Part shown: piece by piece, positions 4,578 to 60,426 of the stretch
Layout of the letters: each line of letters starts with the position of its first letter
Position numbering within the stretch: the first letter of the stretch is position 1
Assembly: GCF_003334385.1 (NCBI RefSeq)
Contig: NZ_QOWN01000005.1
Origin: Escherichia coli
GTDB taxonomy: Bacteria > Pseudomonadota > Gammaproteobacteria > Enterobacterales > Enterobacteriaceae
DNA: 64,000 nucleotides
Strand: one strand, 5' to 3'
Program-made: the position numbers and the translations under genes
The notes under the pieces: generated by a model
Told to the model about the DNA's origin: nothing
Database searches by the model: none
Seen by the model: the letters and a program-made list of their open reading frames with translations, nothing else

Positions 4578-4737
4578 GGGTTATTCCTTATCTATCTAAT
4601 AACGTTGAGTTTTCTGGAACCTGTCCCATTGAACTCTCGCCGGAAAGCTCAATAAGACAGGTTCTACGTTTAGTTGCCGCGCTTTTATATGCGCTTGATT
4701 TACAACATCTTCTGGATAATTTTTACCAGAAAAATCA

Positions 4738-10494: not shown

Positions 10495-12285
10495 ATGAAT
10501 ATTCCACAGCTCACTGCCCTGTGTCTGCGTTATCATGGAGTCTTGCTGGATGCCAGCGAAGAGGTGGTTCATGTTGCGGTAGTCGATGCACCTTCGCATG
10601 AGCTACTGGACGCATTGCATTTCGCTACCACCAAACGTATTGAGATCACCTGCTGGACGCGCCAACAAATGGAAGGTCACGCCAGTCGCACACAACAGAC
10701 ATTGCCCGTAGCTGTTCAGGAGAAGCATCAGCCCAAAGCAGAGTTGCTAACTCGAACGTTACAATCTGCGCTGGAACAACGCGCGTCTGATATTCATATC
10801 GAACCAGCGGACAATGCCTACCGCATCCGCTTGCGTATCGACGGCGTATTGCATCCTTTACCGGATGTTTCACCGGATGCCGGAGTCGCATTAACCGCCA
10901 GATTAAAAGTGCTGGGAAACCTGGATATTGCGGAACATCGCCTGCCGCAGGACGGGCAATTCACTGTCGAACTGGCAGGAAACGCCGTCTCATTTCGTAT
11001 TGCGACCTTACCATGTCGGGGTGGTGAAAAGGTGGTATTAAGGTTGTTACAGCAGGTGGGTCAGGCACTGGATGTCAACACGCTTGGAATGCAGCCGTTA
11101 CAACTGGCGGACTTTGCTCATGCCTTGCAACAACCACAGGGACTGGTGCTGGTAACTGGCCCTACCGGCAGCGGCAAAACGGTCACGCTTTATAGTGCCC
11201 TGCAAAAGCTGAATACCGCTGACATTAATATTTGTAGCGTCGAAGATCCAGTTGAGATCCCCATAGCCGGACTAAACCAGACGCAAATCCATCCGCGTGC
11301 CGGACTCACCTTTCAGGGCGTTTTGCGTGCGTTATTGCGCCAGGATCCTGACGTCATCATGATCGGAGAGATCCGCGATGGCGAAACAGCAGAGATCGCT
11401 ATTAAAGCGGCGCAAACTGGTCACCTGGTGTTGTCTACCCTACACACTAATTCCACCTGCGAAACGCTGGTACGTTTACAGCAAATGGGGGTCGCCCGCT
11501 GGATGCTATCATCGGCGCTTACGCTGGTAATAGCCCAGCGTCAGTTGACCGACAAAGTGAAATCAGCGTTACGTTATCCCATCATCATTTTAGCGATGGC
11601 AATCATGGTGGTTGTGGCAATGCTGCATTTTGTTCTGCCGGAGTTTGCCGCTATCTATAAGACCTTCAACACCCCACTACCGGCACTAACGCAGGGGATC
11701 ATGACGCTGGCAGACTTTAGTGGCGAATGGAGCTGGCTGCTGGTGTTGTTCGGCTTTCTGCTGGCGATAGCCAATAAGTTGCTGATGCGCCGACCGACCT
11801 GGCTTATAGTGCGGCAGAAATTGCTGTTACGCATCCCGATTATGGGTTCACTGATGCGGGGACAAAAACTCACGCAGATCTTTACGATTCTGGCGCTGAC
11901 ACAAAGTGCAGGCATTACTTTTTTACAGGGCGTAGAGAGCGTCAGAGAAACAATGCGCTGCCCGTACTGGGTGCAACTTCTGACACAAATCCAGCACGAT
12001 ATCAGTAACGGTCAACCCATCTGGCTGGCGCTAAAAAATACCGGTGAGTTTAGCCCGCTCTGTTTGCAATTAGTGAGAACAGGAGAGGCATCCGGCTCTC
12101 TGGATCTCATGTTAGACAACCTCGCCCATCATCATCGGGAAAACACAATGGCGCTGGCGGATAACCTCGCAGCCTTACTGGAACCGGCGTTGCTGATCAT
12201 AACGGGAGGAATTATTGGTACGCTGGTGGTGGCAATGTATCTGCCAATTTTCCATTTAGGCGATGCGATGAGTGGGATGGGATAA
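10495..12285 (+). CDS. hofB/hofC: Chimeric ORF: GspE/PilB-type secretion ATPase (HofB-like residues ~1-349) fused in frame to the C-terminal ~247 residues of a GspF/PilC-type platform protein (HofC-like); probably a deletion remnant, possibly non-functional
   Basis: Single 596-aa ORF. Walker A LVLVTGPTGSGKT at aa 218-230, Asp box DPDVIMIGEIRD, His box GHLVLSTLHTNS, then ...ALTLVIAQR | QLTDKVKSALRYPIIILAMAIMVVVAML... (junction near nt 11536-11545) continuing as a polytopic membrane protein that ends LLEPALLIITGGIIGTLVVAMYLPIF. No GspE C-terminal tetracysteine domain and no GspF N-terminal cytoplasmic domain. Confidence 0.8.
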   Translation: MNIPQLTALCLRYHGVLLDASEEVVHVAVVDAPSHELLDALHFATTKRIEITCWTRQQMEGHASRTQQTLPVAVQEKHQPKAELLTRTLQSALEQRASDIHIEPADNAYRIRLRIDGVLHPLPDVSPDAGVALTARLKVLGNLDIAEHRLPQDGQFTVELAGNAVSFRIATLPCRGGEKVVLRLLQQVGQALDVNTLGMQPLQLADFAHALQQPQGLVLVTGPTGSGKTVTLYSALQKLNTADINICSVEDPVEIPIAGLNQTQIHPRAGLTFQGVLRALLRQDPDVIMIGEIRDGETAEIAIKAAQTGHLVLSTLHTNSTCETLVRLQQMGVARWMLSSALTLVIAQRQLTDKVKSALRYPIIILAMAIMVVVAMLHFVLPEFAAIYKTFNTPLPALTQGIMTLADFSGEWSWLLVLFGFLLAIANKLLMRRPTWLIVRQKLLLRIPIMGSLMRGQKLTQIFTILALTQSAGITFLQGVESVRETMRCPYWVQLLTQIQHDISNGQPIWLALKNTGEFSPLCLQLVRTGEASGSLDLMLDNLAHHHRENTMALADNLAALLEPALLIITGGIIGTLVVAMYLPIFHLGDAMSGMG

Positions 12286-15164: not shown

Positions 15165-15373
<209 letters not shown>

Positions 15374-15377
<4 letters not shown>

Positions 15378-15763: not shown

Positions 15764-15822
15764 TGTCTTAAACCTATAAAAAAGGCGCAGAATCCTGCGC
15801 CTTTTACTTCAACAGTTAGCTT

Positions 15823-18528
15823 TTATTGCAGGCGGCCATGGCACTGCTTGTATTTTTTACCAGAACCGCACGGGCAAGGATCGTTACGTCCTACTTTGCG
15901 CTCTCCGGTTTGCGCCGCCAGTGCAGCTGCGGCTGCAGAGTCGTCATCCTGATGGCTAAGCTGCTGCATTTGCGCTAAACGCTCGGCTTCCATACGACGC
16001 TGTTGTTCCAGCTCCTCAACCTCTTCAGGCATACGTACCTGAACTTTGCTCAGCGTACTGATAACTTCATATTTCAACGACTCCAGCATCGCTGCAAACA
16101 TGGAGAACGATTCACGTTTGTATTCCTGCTTCGGATCTTTCTGTGCGTAGCCACGCAGGTGGATACCCTGACGCAGATAGTCCATCGCTGCCAGGTGCTC
16201 TTTCCACAGGGAGTCAAGCGTTTGCAGCATGACGCCTTTCTCGAAGTGACGCATCATCTCAGCACCAACCACTTCTTCTTTACGCTGATACACTTCGATG
16301 GACTGCGCCAGAATGCGCTCACGCAGCGTCTCTTCATGCAGTTCTGGTTCTTTATCCAGCCACTCGGCAATTGGCAAATCGAGGTCGAAATCGTTCTTCA
16401 GACGTTCCTGCAGCCCCGGAATATCCCACATTTCTTCCAGCGACTGTGGTGGAATGTAGGCATCAATGGTCGCTTTGAACACATCTTCACGAATGCTGTT
16501 AATGGTTTCGCTCACATCGCTGACATCCAACAGTTCGTTACGCTGGGAGTAAATGGCGCGACGCTGATCGTTAGCCACGTCATCATATTCCAGCAGTTGC
16601 TTACGAATGTCGAAGTTACGGCTTTCAACTTTACGCTGGGCGTTGGCAATCGCTTTAGTCACCCACGGGTGTTCAATGGCTTCGCCTGGCTTCATACCCA
16701 GTTTACGCATCATGCCGGATACTCGGTCGGAAGCAAAAATACGCATCAGCGCATCTTCCATCGACAGGTAGAAACGGGAAGAACCAGCATCCCCCTGACG
16801 ACCAGAACGACCGCGCAACTGGTTATCGATACGACGGGATTCGTGACGCTCGGTACCGATGATATGCAGGCCACCTGCTTCCAGTACCGCATCGTGACGT
16901 ACCTGCCAGTCGGCTTTAATTTTTTCAATTTGCTCTGCGGTCGGATTTTCCAGCGCGGCAACTTCTGCCTGCCAGCTACCACCGAGCACAATATCTGTAC
17001 CACGACCCGCCATATTGGTCGCGATAGTCACCGCAGCCGGATAACCTGCCTGAGCAACAATCGCCGCTTCGTTGGCGTGGAATTTGGCGTTCAGGACGTT
17101 GTGCTTAATACCGGCTTTGGTCAGTTCGTTTGACACCAGCTCCGATTTTTCGATGGAGATAGTACCCACCAGCACCGGCTGGCCTTTCGCAGTACGTTCT
17201 TTGATATCTTCAATGATCGCCTGAATTTTTTCCGCTTCAGTCATGTAGACCAGGTCCGGCAGATCTTTACGAATCATTGGACGGTTGGTCGGAACAACGA
17301 CGGTATCCAGCTTGTAGATTGAGCTAAATTCGAAAGCTTCGGTATCAGCAGTACCGGTCATCCCCGCCAGTTTTTCATACAGACGGAAGTAGTTCTGGAA
17401 GGTGATCGAAGCCAGCGTTTGGTTTTCGTTCTGGATCTGCACACCTTCTTTCGCTTCCACAGCCTGGTGCAGACCATCGGACCAGCGACGGCCCTGCATG
17501 GTACGACCGGTGTGTTCGTCAACGATGATAACTTCACCATCTTTAACGATGTAGTCGACGTCACGGGTAAACAGCGCATGAGCGCGCAGCGCCGCCGTTA
17601 CGTGGTGCATCAGCATGATGTTGGCCGGAGAGTACAGAGACTCCCCTTCATCCATGATGCCCTCTTTCACCAGCAGTTCTTCAATCAGCACCAGACCACG
17701 TTCGGTCAGGTTCACCTGGCGAGATTTTTCGTCCACCGAGAAGTGGCCTTCGCCCTGGAAGGTTTCGGAGTCTTCTTTTTCCTGACGGATCAGGTGCGGA
17801 ATAATTTTATTCACGCGTTTATACATTTCCGAGCTGTCTTCTGCCGGGCCGGAAATGATCAGCGGTGTACGCGCTTCATCGATCAGGATGGAGTCCACTT
17901 CGTCCACCAGCGCATAGTGCAGTTTACGCTGTACACGTTCTTCAGGGCTGAACGCCATGTTGTCGCGCAGGTAGTCAAAGCCGTATTCGTTGTTCGTACC
18001 GTAAGTGATGTCAGCTGCGTAAGCTTCGCGCTTTGCCGGTGCTGGCATGCCCGGCAGGTTGATACCGACAGTCAGGCCAAGGAATTCAAACAGCGGACGG
18101 TTGTTTTCGGCGTCACGTTGCGCCAGGTAGTCGTTGACGGTAACTACGTGCACGCCTTTACCGGTTAGTGCGTTCAGGTAAGCAGGCAGCGTTGCGGTCA
18201 GGGTTTTTCCTTCACCGGTACGCATTTCGGCGATGCAGCGTTCGTTAAGAACCATACCGCCGAGTAACTGAACGTCGAAGTGACGCATACCAAAGACGCG
18301 CTTACTTGCCTCACGTACCACGGCGAAAGCTTCCGGGATCAGATTTTCCAGCACTTCGCCTTTTTCCAGACGTGCACGAAACTCTGCGGTTTTCCCTTTC
18401 AGTTCTTCGTCGGAGAGTTTTTCCATCTCCGGTTCCATGGCATTGATGATGTTGACCACTTTGCGCATCCGGCGCAGGGTGCGATCGTTACGACTACCGA
18501 AAACTTTAGTTAACAATTTGATTAGCAT
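15823..18528 (-). CDS. secA: Preprotein translocase ATPase SecA
   Basis: 901-aa ORF beginning [23 protein letters not shown] and ending with the zinc-binding tail [17 protein letters not shown]. Confidence 0.98.
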
Positions 18529-20350: not shown

Positions 20351-21502
20351 TTAATCAGCTTGCTTACGCAGGAATGCTGGGATATCCAGATAATCCGGCT
20401 CTTTCGCAGTTTGCGGCGCATTGTCATTCACGACTTTAGCAACCGGCTTCTGCTCCTGGGTCAGCGGAGCCATCCCATGCTGCTGGTAGCGATCCATCAC
20501 TGGCTGCTGAACCTGCTTATTGGTCACCAGAGTGATTTCAGGACGTTTGTCCATGCCGATACCTGTCGCAACAACGGTTACGCGCAGCTCGTCATTCATA
20601 TCCGGGTCAAGAGAAGTACCGATAACCACAGTCGCGTTGTCGGAAGCAAATGCACGGATGGTGTTACCTACCGTTTCGAACTCATCCAGACGCAGGTCGA
20701 AGCCCGCCGTGATGTTAACCAGCACGCCGCGCGCGCCAGACAGGTCGATATCTTCCAGCAGCGGAGAAGAGATAGCCATTTCAGCAGCTTCTTCCGCACG
20801 GTCTTCACCGCTCGCCACGCCAGAACCCATCATTGCGTAGCCCATCTCAGACATTACGGTGCGTACGTCTGCAAAGTCCACGTTCATCAAACCCGGACGA
20901 GTAATCAGTTCAGCGATACCTTGCACAGCGCCTTTCAGTACATCGTTCGCTGCGCCAAACGCATCCAGCAGGGAGATACCGCGGCCCAGAACTTTCAGCA
21001 GTTTGTCGTTCGGGATAGTGATCAGAGAGTCCACATGCTTGGACAGTTCAGTGATCCCCTGCTCCGCGAATGCCATACGCTTCTTGCCTTCAAAGTTGAA
21101 AGGCTTAGTGACGACAGCAACGGTCAGGATACCCAAATCTTTTGCCACTTCAGCGACGACTGGTGCTGCACCTGTACCGGTACCACCACCCATACCCGCA
21201 GCAATAAAGACCATGTCTGCACCTTCCAGCGCCGCACGCAATGCATCGCGATCCTCATCAGCCGCATTGCGGCCAACTTCTGGATTAGCGCCAGCGCCCA
21301 GTCCTTTGGTGATACCGCTACCGATTTGAATCGTCTGTCCAACCGCTGTTTTACGCAGCGCTTGTGCATCGGTATTTACCGCGAAGAATTCAACACCTTC
21401 AATGCGCTCGCGCACCATGTGTTCAACAGCATTACCGCCGCCGCCGCCGACGCCGATGACTTTAATCACCGCGTCATTGGTAAGTTCCATTGGTTCAAAC
21501 AT
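20351..21502 (-). CDS. ftsZ: Cell division GTPase FtsZ
   Basis: 383-aa ORF with the tubulin signature GGGTGTG. Confidence 0.98.
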
Positions 21503-21562
21503 AGTTTCTCTCCGATTTGTGCCTGTCGCCTGAGGCCGTAATCATCGTCGGCCTCATAAAAA

Positions 21563-22825
21563 TTAAAACTCTTTTCGCAGCCAACTATTGAGTCGCTTGA
21601 TCCACGAGCCAACTGATGCTGTAACACGTTTTTCTACTTCAGCTTCACCGTTAAGATGTGACTCTTTCCCATAGTGAAGCAATCCCACCGCCGTCGAATA
21701 ATACGGCTCCTGAGCATAATCCGTTAAACCGGTAATGTTCAGCGGCGCGCCGATACGCACTTGCGTATGAAACACGCGCTGAGCACAGGCTGCAAGACCT
21801 TCGATCTGCGCTGCGCCACCGGTTAATACAATGCCTGCCGCCAGGTGATGTTTAACCCCTTGTTGGCGAAGCTTTTCCTGCAACTGCAATATCTCTTCGT
21901 TGACCAGGTTGAGCAGCTCGGTATAGCGCGGCTCGATCACCTCTGCCAGTGTCTGACGTTGCAGACTCCGTGGCGGACGACCACCTACGCTCGGCACTTC
22001 CACGCTCTCATCTTTTCCAACGATGGAACCCAGCGCACAACCGTGGCGAACTTTAATCGCTTCGGCGTCGCTTGGCGGCGTGCCAAAGGCGTAAGCGATA
22101 TCACTGGTCACGACATTGCCAGCATAAGGAATTACCTTAGTGTGGCGCAATGCCCCACCGGTATAAACGGCGATATCCATTGTACCACCACCGATATCGA
22201 CGACGCAGACACCCAGTTCACGTTCATCTTCCGTCAATACCGAATAACTTGATGCCAGTCCGGCAAATATCAGTTGGTCAACTTTCAGCCCACAACGTTC
22301 AACCGCTTTGACGATGTTTTTCGCCATATCGTTGTGACATGTGATCAGGTGCACTTTTGCCTGCATCCGCACGCCCGAAAGTCCTACCGGATTCTTGATC
22401 CCTTCCTGATAGTCAATCGCATACTCTTGCGGGATCACATGCAGCACACGATGCTCATCGCGCACACGCACCGATTTCGCGGTATGGACGACGTTTTCCA
22501 CATCTTCTTGCGTCACTTCTTCTTCAGAAATAGGCACCATACCAATTTCATTCTGGCAGCTGATGTGCTTACCAGAAAGCGCCAGATATACCGAAGAGAT
22601 CTGACAATCTGCCATCAATTCTGCCTGGTCAATGGCGCGTTGTACGCACTTGACCACGGATTCGAGGTCGTTCACCCCGCCTTTATCCATACCACGCGAC
22701 GGGCAGCTGCCCACGCCAATGATATTGACCATACCGTCGGGCAGAACTTCCCCTACTAAAGCGGCAACCTTCGCGGTACCAATCTCCAGTCCTACTACCA
22801 GTTTTCTGTCCGTCGCCTTGATCAT
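21563..22825 (-). CDS. ftsA: Cell division protein FtsA (actin-like ATPase)
   Basis: 420-aa ORF beginning [27 protein letters not shown]. Confidence 0.98.
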
Positions 22826-42439: not shown

Positions 42440-43098
42440 ACTTAACTCCACTGTCACACTTAACTCCCTTTCCCTTATTGGAATGCAGAGAAATAATCCT
42501 GAAGAATATGATTTATCATGCATATAAAATAAGAAAAAGCAAAATGAGTAAAATTCGGAAAACATAAAGATACGGGTTCTGATAAAAACAGAATCCATTG
42601 CCGTGGAATGAGTCATTTACCACAGCATAATAATCCATAATATTTTTGTTGCGAAAACAATCTAATCATAACTACCGCGAATACTCAATCATCTACAAAA
42701 TGGATTAAATGTGCTTATTTAATAATTAATTTATATATTTAATGCATTAATTCTTAACATTAATTGATCAATAATATTCACCAAATCAATATCAAAAAAA
42801 ATCGCAAAACATATAATTCAATACAAATCATCAGGATAGGTTTTGCAACGCGTGCATTTTGTCCCCTTTTTCCTCGTTGATTAGATGCAAAAATTTATGC
42901 TGAAATATGTCAACCGATGAAAAGCGTCGGTAGTTAAGCAGAAATTAATATCGCTTACTTTAACCACCGCAGCACAATTAGCTAATTTTACGGATGCAGA
43001 ACTCACGCTGGCGGGACGTTTTTATTGCGTCAGGGTTGACATCCGTTTTTGTATCCAGTAACTCTAAAAGCATATCGCATTCATCTGGAGCTGATTTA

Positions 43099-43185
43099 AT
43101 GACTCACATCGTTCGCTTTATCGGTCTACTACTACTAAACGCATCTTCTTTGCGCGGTAGACGAGTGAGCGGCATCCAGCATTAA
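43099..43185 (+). CDS. leuL: leu operon leader peptide (28 aa, four consecutive Leu codons)
   Basis: [28 protein letters not shown] read at the 3' end of the 63-aa track ORF; followed by the attenuator hairpin. Confidence 0.9.
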
Positions 43186-43204
43186 GCCAGCACGCAGTCA
43201 AACA

Positions 43205-43235
43205 AAAAACCCGCGCCATTGCGCGGGTTTTTTTA
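43205..43235 (+). terminator. leu attenuator terminator (CCCGCGC catt GCGCGGG followed by T7)
   Basis: GC-rich hairpin with a run of 7 T, located between leuL and leuA. Confidence 0.85.
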
Positions 43236-48007: not shown

Positions 48008-49186
48008 TCAAACGTCTTTAACCTTTGCGGTTAAAAATAATGCGACAACAGAAATAACCGCAATTACCCAGTAGACAGCAAAGTGCCCCCAACTTTGTGC
48101 AATTGCTCCCTGAATAACGCCAGCCAGAATTACCCCGGTAGAAATACTGTTAGTAAATAAGGTGGTAGCTGCCCCCGCTCTTCCAGGCATTAAATCCTGA
48201 AACCATAGCATCCCAATACCCGCAACAATGCCGATAAATACAGCGTTAAAAAGTTGCAGCGTCATCAACGCCATACGGCTATTAAAGAAAATCAATCCGG
48301 TGTAAAACAGTACTCCTGCCGCCACTGCTATGACCATCATTCGCCGCTTACCATAACGTTTGACATAGTAGCCAGCCAGAATCATTGCTGGTATTTCCAG
48401 TCCAGCTGCCGTCCCCATCAGGAAACCCGCCAGTTTGTCTGGCAATCCTAACTCGCTACTGATCCACAACGGCATATCAATAATGTACATGGTGTTGCAG
48501 GTCCACATTAACGTCGAGGCGACAAATAACATCCGTACGTTACTATCCTGCCAGCCACCTTGCATTGATAAAGCATTTTCCGACGGCAGTTCTACCCGCG
48601 CCACAGACGGAAGCATAAATGCAATCAATACCAGACTGAGTGTGAATATCCCGGCGGCAATCGAAAACATCACCGTAAAGCCGTAATTCAACGCCAGCAT
48701 AAAGGCCAACGGTGGACCGATAACCCATGCCAGAGAAAGCTGCGCACGCATCACCGAGCTAAACATCACCACTTCTCGCGCCGAGTTATCCGCATATTCC
48801 CGCGCCAGAGCAAATAACTGTGGCATTGCCGTATTGGCCAGAGATGCCAGAAGCACACCACAGGTGATAAGCGTCAGATAATGACGATTAAATGCAAACA
48901 ATAGCGCATTGCCGATAGCCATCAAACAGCAAAATATAATCAGTTTTCGCCGATCGCCCTGACTGTCAGAACGTTTTGCCAACCAGAGGCTTACGCCGAT
49001 CCCAGCAATAGCATTCACCGTATAAAAGAGGCCGATCCAGAAAGGTTGCGCGCCAACCTCACGACTCAGAAATAAGCTCAATGTAGGAGCCTGTAGCGCC
49101 CCGGCCACCCCCATCATAAAAGCGACCAGCATAAATGCCGCGTAAACACCGTTCATACGGCGAGCCATCGTCATTATCCAGATCAT
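48008..49186 (-). CDS. setA: MFS sugar efflux transporter SetA
   Basis: 392-aa 12-TM ORF beginning MIWIMTMARRMNGVYAAFMLVAFMMGVAGAL. Confidence 0.95.
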   Translation of the reverse strand: MIWIMTMARRMNGVYAAFMLVAFMMGVAGALQAPTLSLFLSREVGAQPFWIGLFYTVNAIAGIGVSLWLAKRSDSQGDRRKLIIFCCLMAIGNALLFAFNRHYLTLITCGVLLASLANTAMPQLFALAREYADNSAREVVMFSSVMRAQLSLAWVIGPPLAFMLALNYGFTVMFSIAAGIFTLSLVLIAFMLPSVARVELPSENALSMQGGWQDSNVRMLFVASTLMWTCNTMYIIDMPLWISSELGLPDKLAGFLMGTAAGLEIPAMILAGYYVKRYGKRRMMVIAVAAGVLFYTGLIFFNSRMALMTLQLFNAVFIGIVAGIGMLWFQDLMPGRAGAATTLFTNSISTGVILAGVIQGAIAQSWGHFAVYWVIAVISVVALFLTAKVKDV

Positions 49187-49213
49187 ACGTTCCCTTTTTA
49201 GCGCGGCGAGAAT

Positions 49214-49440
49214 AAAAAAAACCAGCAGGTATAATCTGCTGGCGGGTGATTTTACACCAATACTCAGTCACACATGATGCAGGCAAGTCAACTTTCAGAA
49301 TTGCGGTCATCCCACTGCATCAGTCCTTCAAGCATGGTTAATCGTTGTGGGACGCTTAACCAACGCAACCAGCACAACTTCGCTGTCGCGGTAAAATAGT
49401 GCTGATAAAACTGACGCATGGGGCACCCCCTTGCTTCATC
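49214..49440 (-). ncRNA. sgrS: SgrS small RNA (glucose-phosphate stress; encodes SgrT and carries the base-pairing region plus terminator)
   Basis: Minus-strand sequence GATGAAGCAAGGGGGTGCCCCATG...GTGTGACTGAGTATTGGTGTAAAATCACCCGCCAGCAGATTATACCTGCTGG followed by T8; divergent from sgrR. Confidence 0.85.
49288..49419 (-). CDS. sgrT: SgrT small protein (43 aa) encoded inside SgrS
   Basis: MRQFYQHYFTATAKLCWLRWLSVPQRLTMLEGLMQWDDRNSES read from the ATG at 49417-49419. Confidence 0.85.
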   Translation of the reverse strand: MRQFYQHYFTATAKLCWLRWLSVPQRLTMLEGLMQWDDRNSES

Positions 49441-49507
49441 GTTAGGAATTATTGACTTAATATAGGGAAAATAAAATTGCTGTCTTTTGCACAGGAGTTC
49501 CCCTTTT

Positions 49508-51163
49508 ATGCCATCTGCTCGTCTGCAACAACAGTTCATCCGCCTGTGGCAATGCTGCGAGGGTAAATCGCAGGACACAACGCTCAACGAACTGGCAGCG
49601 TTATTGAGCTGCTCGCGTCGTCATATGCGCACCCTGCTCAACACCATGCAGGATCGCGGCTGGCTGACGTGGGAAGCGGAAGTCGGGCGCGGTAAACGCT
49701 CGCGTCTGACATTCCTCTATACCGGGCTGGCGCTTCAGCAACAGCGGGCGGAAGACCTGCTGGAGCAGGATCGTATCGATCAACTGGTGCAGTTGGTTGG
49801 CGACAAAGCGACTGTGCGGCAAATGCTGGTTTCTCATCTGGGCCGCAGCTTCCGCCAGGGGCGGCACATCCTGCGCGTGCTCTACTATCGTCCGTTGCGT
49901 AATCTGCTACCTGGCAGCGCATTGCGCCGTTCCGAAACCCATATCGCCCGGCAAATCTTCAGTTCGCTAACGCGCATAAATGAGGAAAATGGGGAACTGG
50001 AAGCAGACATCGCCCACCACTGGCAGCAAATTTCACCGCTTCACTGGCGTTTCTTTTTGCGTCCAGGAGTCCATTTTCACCATGGTCGTGAACTGGAAAT
50101 GGACGATGTGATCGCCTCTTTAAAACGAATCAATACGCTGCCGCTCTATTCGCATATTGCTGACATTGTGTCGCCGACGCCCTGGACGCTGGATATCCAT
50201 CTCACGCAACCGGACCGCTGGTTACCGTTACTGCTGGGGCAAGTTCCGGCGATGATCCTGCCGCGCGAATGGGAAACCCTCAGTAACTTTGCCAGCCATC
50301 CCATCGGCACCGGTCCGTATGCGGTGATTCGCAACAGCACCAATCAACTGAAAATTCAGGCATTCGATGACTTCTTCGGTTACCGGGCATTAATCGACGA
50401 AGTTAACGTCTGGGTTCTGCCGGAAATTGCCGACGAGCCAGCCGGAGGGCTGATGCTAAAAGGTCCACAGGGCGAGGAAAAAGAGATTGAAAGCCGCCTG
50501 GAGGAAGGTTGCTACTATTTACTGTTCGACAGCCGCACCCATCGCGGGGCGAATCAGCAAGTCAGGGACTGGGTAAGCTATGTGCTTTCTCCAACTAATC
50601 TGGTCTATTTCGCTGAGGAACAGTACCAGCAACTGTGGTTCCCGGCTTATGGACTGCTCCCCCGTTGGCACCATGCCCGCACCATAAAGAGCGAAAAACC
50701 GGCTGGCCTGGAAAGCCTCACCCTAACCTTTTATCAGGATCACAGTGAGCATCGGGTGATTGCCGGGATCATGCAGCAGATTCTGGCAAGTCACCAGGTC
50801 ACGCTGAAAATCAAAGAGATCGACTACGATCAGTGGCATACAGGAGAGATCGAAAGTGATATCTGGCTAAACAGCGCCAACTTTACCCTGCCGCTGGACT
50901 TCTCTGTTTTCGCACATTTATGCGAAGTGCCACTGCTACAACATTGCATTCCCATTGACTGGCAAGCCGACGCTGCTCGCTGGCGCAATGGCGAGATGAA
51001 TCTGGCGAACTGGTGCCAGCAACTGGTCGCCAGCAAAGCGATGGTGCCATTATTGCACCACTGGCTGATCATTCAGGGGCAACGCAGTATGCGCGGCCTG
51101 CGCATGAATACCCTCGGCTGGTTCGATTTTAAATCAGCGTGGTTTGCGCCACCGGATCCATGA
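49508..51163 (+). CDS. sgrR: Transcriptional activator SgrR (N-terminal wHTH DNA-binding domain, C-terminal solute-binding-protein-like domain)
   Basis: Track ORF trimmed to [44 protein letters not shown]... (551 aa); SD AGGAG at 49494-49498. Confidence 0.94.
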
Positions 51164-51204
51164 TTGCTGGTTGATAACAAAATCACTACACTAACGCCGT
51201 TCTC

Positions 51205-51300
51205 AACGGGGTGCCACGCGTACGCGTGCGCTGAGAAAATACCCGTCGAACCTGATCCGGATAACGCCGGCGAAGGGATTTGAGGCTCCTTCTCAAGTCC
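51205..51300 (+). promoter_or_regulatory. TPP riboswitch (thi-box) in the thiBPQ leader
   Basis: GGGGTGCC...CTGAGA AAATACCCGT CGAACCTGATCCGGATAACGCCGGCGAAGGGA matches the conserved THI element core (CUGAGA / ACCUGAUC.GGAUAAUGCC.GCGAAGGGA). Confidence 0.85.
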
Positions 51301-59978: not shown

Positions 59979-60413
59979 GCATCCGGTATGTAACACCTGA
60001 TGCGACGCTGACGCGTCTTATCTGGCCTACACGCTGCGATTTTGTAGGCCGGATAAGCAAAGCGCATCCGGCATTCAACGCCTGATGCGACGCTGGCGCG
60101 TCTTATCAGGCCTACGCGCTGCGATTTTGTAGGCCGGATAAGCAAAGCGCATCCGGCATTCAACGCCTGATGCGACGCTGGCGCGTCTTATCAGGCCTAC
60201 GCGCTGCGATTTTGTAGGCCGGATAAGCAAAGCGCATCCGGCATTCAACGCCTGATGCGACGCTGGCGCGTCTTATCAGGCCTACGCGCTGCGATTTTGT
60301 AGGCCGGATAAGCAAAGCGCATCCGGCATTCAACGCCTGATGCGACGCTGGCGCGTCTTATCAGGCCTACACGCTGCGATTTTGTAGGCCGGATAAGCAA
60401 AGCGCATCCGGCA
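59979..60413. repeat. Tandem BIME array: five complete 85-bp units (starting at 59979, 60064, 60149, 60234, 60319) plus a partial sixth, each unit holding an inverted REP pair
   Basis: Unit GCATCCGGCATTCAACGCCTGATGCGACGCTGGCGCGTCTTATCAGGCCTACGCGCTGCGATTTTGTAGGCCGGATAAGCAAAGC repeats with an exact 85-bp period; fills the araA-araD spacer. Confidence 0.9.
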
Positions 60414-60426
60414 CGAAGGAGTCAAC

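Follow-up and report, generated by a model that had tools for sequence, protein, structure and literature searches.

The stretch at positions 49,214 to 49,440 raises a question in two parts: whether it is an intact sgrS, the gene of a small RNA with the sgrT reading frame embedded in it, and whether both functions of such an RNA can be expected of this particular copy. Throughout, the window means the whole 64,000-nucleotide stretch of Escherichia coli DNA that was analysed, and all coordinates refer to it. The original prediction had placed the known dual-function SgrS at 49214-49440 on the minus strand, divergent from sgrR, and had called it intact. When all Rfam families were scanned, SgrS (RF00534) was matched from 49440 to 49214 with 228.8 bits (gathering score 37, E value 2.7e-64), untruncated over model positions 1-232 of 232, and this was the top Rfam match anywhere in the window. 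The boundaries of the match are exactly the predicted ones. The SgrS small RNA is 227 nt long, with its 5' end (+1) at 49440 and its 3' end at 49214, and 227 of 227 nucleotides are the same as in sgrS (b4577) of K-12 MG1655 (NC_000913.3, 77367-77593). Its predicted fold reached -79.2 kcal/mol, with a z value of -3.43, and was better than all 200 dinucleotide shuffles.

An open reading frame and a hairpin that are merely similar to those of SgrS, whether decayed or assembled by chance, would be a competing explanation. Because the E value was obtained over the whole model and the identity to an experimentally characterised gene is 100%, a chance resemblance to SgrS is excluded, and the sequence contains no counter-evidence to the SgrS identity. 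The 3' base-pairing region is kept and the sgrT frame is undisrupted. Together with the Pfam match of SgrT and the NCBIfam match of SgrR described below, these results bear out the prediction of a known and intact dual-function RNA. The stretch is almost certainly sgrS on the chromosome of a K-12-like E. coli, at its native place between sgrR and setA.

The locus order, thiB - TPP riboswitch/sroA - sgrR / sgrS-sgrT - setA / leuD, is the canonical arrangement. As a whole, the window corresponds in reverse complement to about 62.8-126.8 kb of K-12, from rapA/polB to aceF, collinear and ~99.98% identical, and the 4.5 kb around sgrS carry one substitution relative to MG1655, inside thiB. MG1655 (SgrS b4577 and sgrT b4662, in thiB-sroA-sgrR / sgrS-setA / leuD) thus has the same 227 nt, the same neighbours and the same orientation. 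It also shares the spacings of 67 nt to the sgrR ATG and 27 nt to the setA ATG as well as the G13 hairpin discussed below, and nothing differs within the feature.

On the upstream side, sgrR encodes the 551-aa transcriptional activator of sgrS and lies at 49508..51163 on the plus strand (K-12 b0069). SgrR matched its NCBIfam equivalog NF010149 at 1126.8 bits (cut-off 476), over residues 1-550 of 551. The predicted distance of 68 bp to an sgrR on the opposite strand agrees with the ATG at 49508: there are 67 intervening bases, and 68 is the value obtained by subtraction. The 67-bp divergent control region (49441..49507) holds the sgrS promoter and presumably the SgrR-responsive sequences. It is identical at 66/67 and 65/67 positions in two sampled copies whose sgrS is 87-89% identical, and is therefore better conserved than the RNA itself; in an earlier study, too, the sgrR-sgrS region was conserved, and activation of sgrS required it (PMC2760817). 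A sigma-70 scan placed no promoter at the known SgrS +1. Its sole minus-strand match, AAGACA-16-TATATT, ends at 49459, 19 nt upstream of +1, and was not taken as the sgrS promoter. Judging from the letters alone, AATAAT at 49453..49448 (-13..-8) is a candidate -10 element of sgrS, and the miss of the scan would fit a promoter that depends on an activator and has a weak -35.

The protein-coding part was then read within these boundaries. The sgrT CDS, 43 codons and a TGA stop, occupies 49288..49419 on the minus strand (SgrS nt 22-153), with its ATG at nt 22 (49419) and the TGA ending at nt 153 (49288). The predicted 43-codon frame is hence readable from 49419 to 49288 with no disruption. Its 43-aa product, MRQFYQHYFTATAKLCWLRWLSVPQRLTMLEGLMQWDDRNSES, equals K-12 b4662 in sequence and matched Pfam SgrT (PF15894) at 3.5e-13 over residues 3-37, and "glucose uptake inhibitor SgrT" is the RefSeq label at the same position in identical genomes. 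A search of SgrT against the NCBIfam HMMs gave no family at E<=0.001, which seems to reflect incomplete coverage by the HMMs and not a lack of membership. The ribosome-binding site, whose check had been proposed together with that of the frame, was found as well: the Shine-Dalgarno sequence AAGGGGGU (nt 9-16) stands before the AUG with a spacer of 5 nt.

This Shine-Dalgarno sequence overlaps an inverted repeat, GGGGGUGCCCC (nt 11-21), the two together lying at 49420..49432 on the minus strand according to sequence reading and fold. The first 40 nt of SgrS were predicted to form a hairpin of -12.4 kcal/mol that covers both the Shine-Dalgarno sequence and the AUG, and in the full-length SgrS ensemble the mean probability of being unpaired was 0.31 for the former and 0.10 for the latter. 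The GC-rich inverted repeat GGGGGUGCCCC of K-12 SgrS was described by Wadler and Vanderpool, whose genetic evidence points to an inhibition of sgrT translation by it. They could not detect SgrT when the native K-12 allele was used, and saw it only once mutations had opened the hairpin (PMC2760806). With the ribosome-binding site of sgrT enclosed in the GC hairpin, a low SgrT output is expected, as the published K-12 genetics suggests. The word "intact" in the original prediction therefore holds for the sequence and needs a refinement for SgrT output, the position of the Shine-Dalgarno sequence inside the K-12-type hairpin having been missed. In short, the dual function is intact in sequence, and its protein side is probably weak. 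By analogy with the K-12 gene, base pairing should carry most of the response in the G13 allele.

The hairpin allele is recognised by G13 (position 49428, SgrS nt 13), which gives GGGGG. The exact 65-mer from SgrS -20 to +45 was present in 1421 of 5400 genomes, about a quarter, and 3979 differed. All four sampled genomes that differ in the 65-mer carry G13A (GGAGG), a change that disrupts the hairpin. Horler and Vanderpool likewise saw the stem-loop over the Shine-Dalgarno sequence in just three of 15 strains of E. coli (PMC2760817).

A stricter reading of these results is that SgrS here acts in practice as a base-pairing sRNA only, with an intact sgrT that is essentially untranslated, its Shine-Dalgarno sequence being hidden by the GGGGGUGCCCC hairpin. 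The presence of the hairpin, the predicted pairing of the Shine-Dalgarno sequence and AUG, the undetectable SgrT of the native K-12 allele, and the consensus GGAGG with its weaker fold in the four sampled G13A genomes all point in this direction. Yet the frame is without decay in this allele and its Pfam match is good, and SgrT made ectopically from the K-12 sequence acts on PtsG (PMC3901232, and PMC12612679 citing Lloyd 2017). Moreover, low translation differs from none, and a condition that could open the K-12 hairpin is a possibility which the authors themselves left standing (PMC2760806). We consider the silent state of sgrT possible, with a probability that stays noticeably below one half. 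It is plausible, and it refines the main reading without replacing it: "dual-function" would then fit the gene family and not this copy under normal conditions.

That published possibility leads to another view of the same hairpin, namely that G13 makes the sgrT ribosome-binding site a conditional switch and is not a loss-of-expression variant. In this case the hairpin would yield to temperature, to a protein or to another RNA, and SgrT would be made only under a second signal. Conditional opening was raised as a possibility by the authors (PMC2760806), and we hold the switch to be quite unlikely. If true, such a switch would separate the two functions of one SgrS transcript. The reading kept here is that of a dual-function RNA which is intact in sequence and probably weak in SgrT.

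The second function depends on the base-pairing (seed) region GUGUGACUGAGUAUUGGUGU, SgrS nt 168-187 (49254..49273, minus strand), with the core CUGAGUAU at nt 174-181 (49260..49267). The core is the perfect complement of K-12 ptsG -22..-15, which adjoins the ptsG Shine-Dalgarno sequence. The window lacks ptsG, and the leader sequence used for pairing was that of K-12 ptsG and not that of the genome's own gene. When 30-nt segments of SgrS were scanned against ptsG -45..+15, the eight best started at nt 158-168 with -27.8 to -28.5 kcal/mol, compared with a median of -11.4. The seed duplex with K-12 ptsG -29..-9 reached -28.5 kcal/mol, a value matched by 0 of 2000 shuffles of SgrS 157-195. A further calculation paired full-length SgrS with 140 nt of ptsG leader; it gave -64.5 kcal/mol with giant loops, 323 of 500 shuffled targets were as good, and the result was discarded.

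No other internal part of SgrS is as open as the seed in the partition function, where its mean probability of being unpaired is 0.67 against 0.38 for the whole RNA. The seed also keeps both G176 and G178, and regulation is lost when these are mutated (PMC2760806). The conserved base-pairing segment of the original prediction is thus readable on the minus strand as nt 168-187, with a ptsG-complementary core and with 24/24 identical positions (nt 164-187) in the divergent allele of E. coli AR_0081. According to published work, the same seed represses manXYZ, asd, purR, folE and adiY and stabilises the yigL mRNA (PMC4021124, PMC12612679, PMC3901232).

Downstream of the seed, the small hairpin GGUG-UAAAAU-CACC (nt 183-196; 49245..49258, minus strand) appears in the centroid structure just before the terminator, and a short hairpin preceding the SgrS terminator is mentioned in the literature (PMC4509938). 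The intrinsic terminator itself covers 49214..49243 on the minus strand. It was found by the terminator scan and in the Rfam structure line as an 8-bp stem with a 7-nt loop, GCCAGCAG-AUUAUAC-CUGCUGGU (49243..49221), followed by the T8 tail (U8 in the RNA, 49221..49214); a terminator hairpin with a T8 tail is what the original prediction had named. The published values for SgrS are a polyU length of 8 and a hairpin free energy of -11.3 (PMC4509938). By analogy with the characterised RNA, the terminator with its U8 would serve as the Hfq-binding module.

Behind the terminator follows setA at 48008..49186 on the minus strand, which encodes a sugar efflux transporter of 392 aa (K-12 b0070) and has its ATG 27 nt 3' of the SgrS end. 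Its product matched TIGR00899 with 602.6 bits against a cut-off of 522.3, and the SetB equivalog with 446.7, under the cut-off of 693. The 27-bp spacing and the cotranscription of sgrS and setA are given in published passages (PMC9765468, PMC4509938), as is a read-through of about 50% at the sgrS terminator in unstressed cells, which yields setA mRNA (PMC4509938, PMC9765468). The stretch might accordingly be chiefly the 5' leader of setA mRNA, with the read-through sgrS-setA transcript as main product and the short RNA as a by-product of partial termination. In line with this, setA lies 27 nt past the U tail on the same strand, with no promoter-like site between, and the cited read-through and cotranscription point the same way. 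Against this, Hfq binding and target regulation are confined to the terminated form, the read-through RNA not being bound by Hfq, and termination improves under stress, which is the inducing condition (PMC4509938).

The distribution of the two genes in E. coli bears on both sides of this matter. Of 5426 complete E. coli genomes, 5400 had a single-copy sgrS match of 87-100% identity and the other 26 had none; three of the matches sit on records labelled as plasmids. Two allele groups were seen, one at least 99% identical to the window (n=3230) and one of 80-90% identity (n=2158). An sgrS at least 95% identical to that of the window occurs in 3241 genomes (3230 + 11), and setA likewise in 3241. 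From these equal counts, the K-12-type sgrS allele and setA appear to travel together, as would suit a leader of setA. Meanwhile, setA was absent between sgrS and leuD in both of the sampled genomes with 87-89% identity (AR_0081 and HS-02). About 2158 E. coli genomes keep sgrS with conserved seed and terminator, the two sampled ones having no setA downstream and the setA count being in agreement, and SgrS therefore stands on its own. Taken with the behaviour of termination under stress, this largely refutes the leader reading, which we regard as very improbable, and SgrS as a regulatory RNA in its own right is retained.

Two haplotypes can hence be distinguished at 48008..49440: the K-12 type with setA after sgrS, and the 87-89% type, in two sampled genomes, without it. 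The 88% dimorphism, K-12 versus CFT073/O157:H7, was described already in 2009 in passages of PMC2760817; those published passages on the dimorphism contain no statement of a tight linkage between the sgrS allele and setA.

To locate the divergence, the modules of the window copy were compared with those of AR_0081 from the 88% group. The control region (66/67 identical), the leader (20/21), sgrT codons 1-36 (106/108), the seed (nt 164-187, 24/24) and the terminator stem (8/8 and 7/8, or 15/16) were nearly unchanged. Much lower values were obtained for the last seven sgrT codons with the stop (14/24), the two linkers (6/10 and 5/11, or 11/21) and the terminator loop (2/7). The divergence of sgrS is therefore concentrated outside the functional modules. 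In other words, the CFT073/O157:H7-type allele (~88%; AR_0081, HS-02) has the promoter region, the seed and the terminator stem in common with the window copy, and nearly all of sgrT codons 1-36 as well. In contrast, its Shine-Dalgarno sequence is GGAGG instead of GGGGG, the last seven residues of its SgrT are EGSHSDY instead of DDRNSES, the linkers and the terminator loop differ, and its tail is U6 followed by C, with no setA after it.

Some members of this group show changes of their own in sgrT. O157:H7 has a further change of the sgrT start from ATG to ATT, which is also published (passages of PMC2760817); in O157:H7 strain 1130, where the start is ATT, the CDS is still annotated by RefSeq. 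In HS-02 (locus L003, 3022..3152), a 1-nt deletion shifts the frame of sgrT, which is annotated as a pseudogene, and 1 of 24 seed positions is changed; this genome is a natural case in which SgrT has been lost and the seed essentially kept. The sgrR annotation of HS-02 is 54 nt longer than usual.

Beyond E. coli, SgrS of Salmonella enterica has the same architecture and function by published description (PMC2760817, PMC2760806, PMC4021124). By the same description it differs in that the hairpin occluding the Shine-Dalgarno sequence is missing and more SgrT is made, in an SgrT of 40 aa, in a terminator 22 nt past the seed and in the extra target sopD. Other RNAs that combine a seed and a small ORF in one transcript are VcdRP of Vibrio cholerae, AzuCR and Spot 42/SpfP of E. 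coli and RNAIII of S. aureus, and VcdR also represses PTS transporter mRNAs (PMC12612679). Their sequences and regulators are unrelated to those of SgrS and their peptides have other targets, and they are analogues and not members of the family.

On the basis of the published mechanism (PMC2760806, PMC2760817, PMC4021124, PMC12612679, PMC3901232, PMC4509938, PMC9765468) and the features found here, the working of the locus may be outlined as follows. Upon accumulation of sugar-phosphates, SgrR would act on the 67-bp divergent region and switch on the sgrS promoter there, as the literature has it. Transcription would stop at the intrinsic terminator to give the 227-nt RNA, whose 3' hairpin and U8 tail, according to the same kind of passages, would bind Hfq. 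The single-stranded seed (nt 168-187) would pair with the ribosome-binding region of ptsG mRNA, the complementarity being computed here, and by the literature this pairing would block translation and lead to decay by RNase E. Meanwhile, the 5' two-thirds of SgrS, in which the ORF is intact here, would encode the 43-aa SgrT. This protein is reported to bind PtsG (EIICB-Glc) and to stop transport (PMC4021124, PMC12612679, PMC3901232), by which glucose uptake would be blocked. Read-through of the terminator would, by passages of the literature, produce setA mRNA in place of a functional sRNA. Because the RNA is 100% identical to the allele used in experiments (PMC4021124, PMC2760806), we infer that this copy would be induced under stress by SgrR and would repress ptsG in vivo.

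The rest of the window held several further observations. Over its 64 kb, the host genome differs from MG1655 by 16 substitutions, two extra 85-bp REP units and a 787-bp hofB-hofC deletion. An 11-bp direct repeat, AGCCCAGCGTC, flanks the missing 787 bp on both sides, the junction lies at about 11532-11542, and the deletion yields an in-frame ORF of 596 aa, HofB(1-349)::HofC(151-400), at 10495..12285 on the plus strand, each part being 100% identical to K-12. An 80-nt probe of the junction reached at least 80% coverage in none of the 5426 complete E. coli genomes, so that the deletion is either private to this genome or an error of the assembly. Between araD and araA (about 60035..60420, plus strand) lies a REP/BIME array of near-identical 85-bp units, called "naRNA4" in Rfam, with two more units (+170 bp) than in MG1655. 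Other "naRNA4" (REP-type) matches lie in the mutT-yacG spacer at 15181..15374 (minus strand).

The Rfam match "PssrA, plasmid-encoded Shigella sRNA A" at 21494..21583 (minus strand, 105.5 bits) is the chromosomal 3' end of ftsA with the 5' leader of ftsZ; it ends with the ribosome-binding site and AUG of ftsZ (GGAGAGAAACUAUGUUUGAA) and overlaps the region of the antisense RNA StfZ annotated in K-12. The family name PssrA is misleading at this position. The remaining Rfam matches were, like the mutT-yacG repeats, K-12 features: the leu operon leader (leuL) at 43085..43234 (plus), the TPP riboswitch/sroA upstream of thiB at 51197..51296 (plus), tp2 at the start of pdhR at 4580..4693 (plus) and STnc40 across the 3' end of secA at 15778..15847 (minus).

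SgrS of this genome is already known in every respect, and for the biology of SgrS the locus brings nothing new. It serves as a positive control only, in which a characterised dual-function RNA was recognised, and its ends exactly placed, from raw sequence. What it adds is the population picture of which known E. coli allele is present here, namely one that is poorly translated for SgrT.
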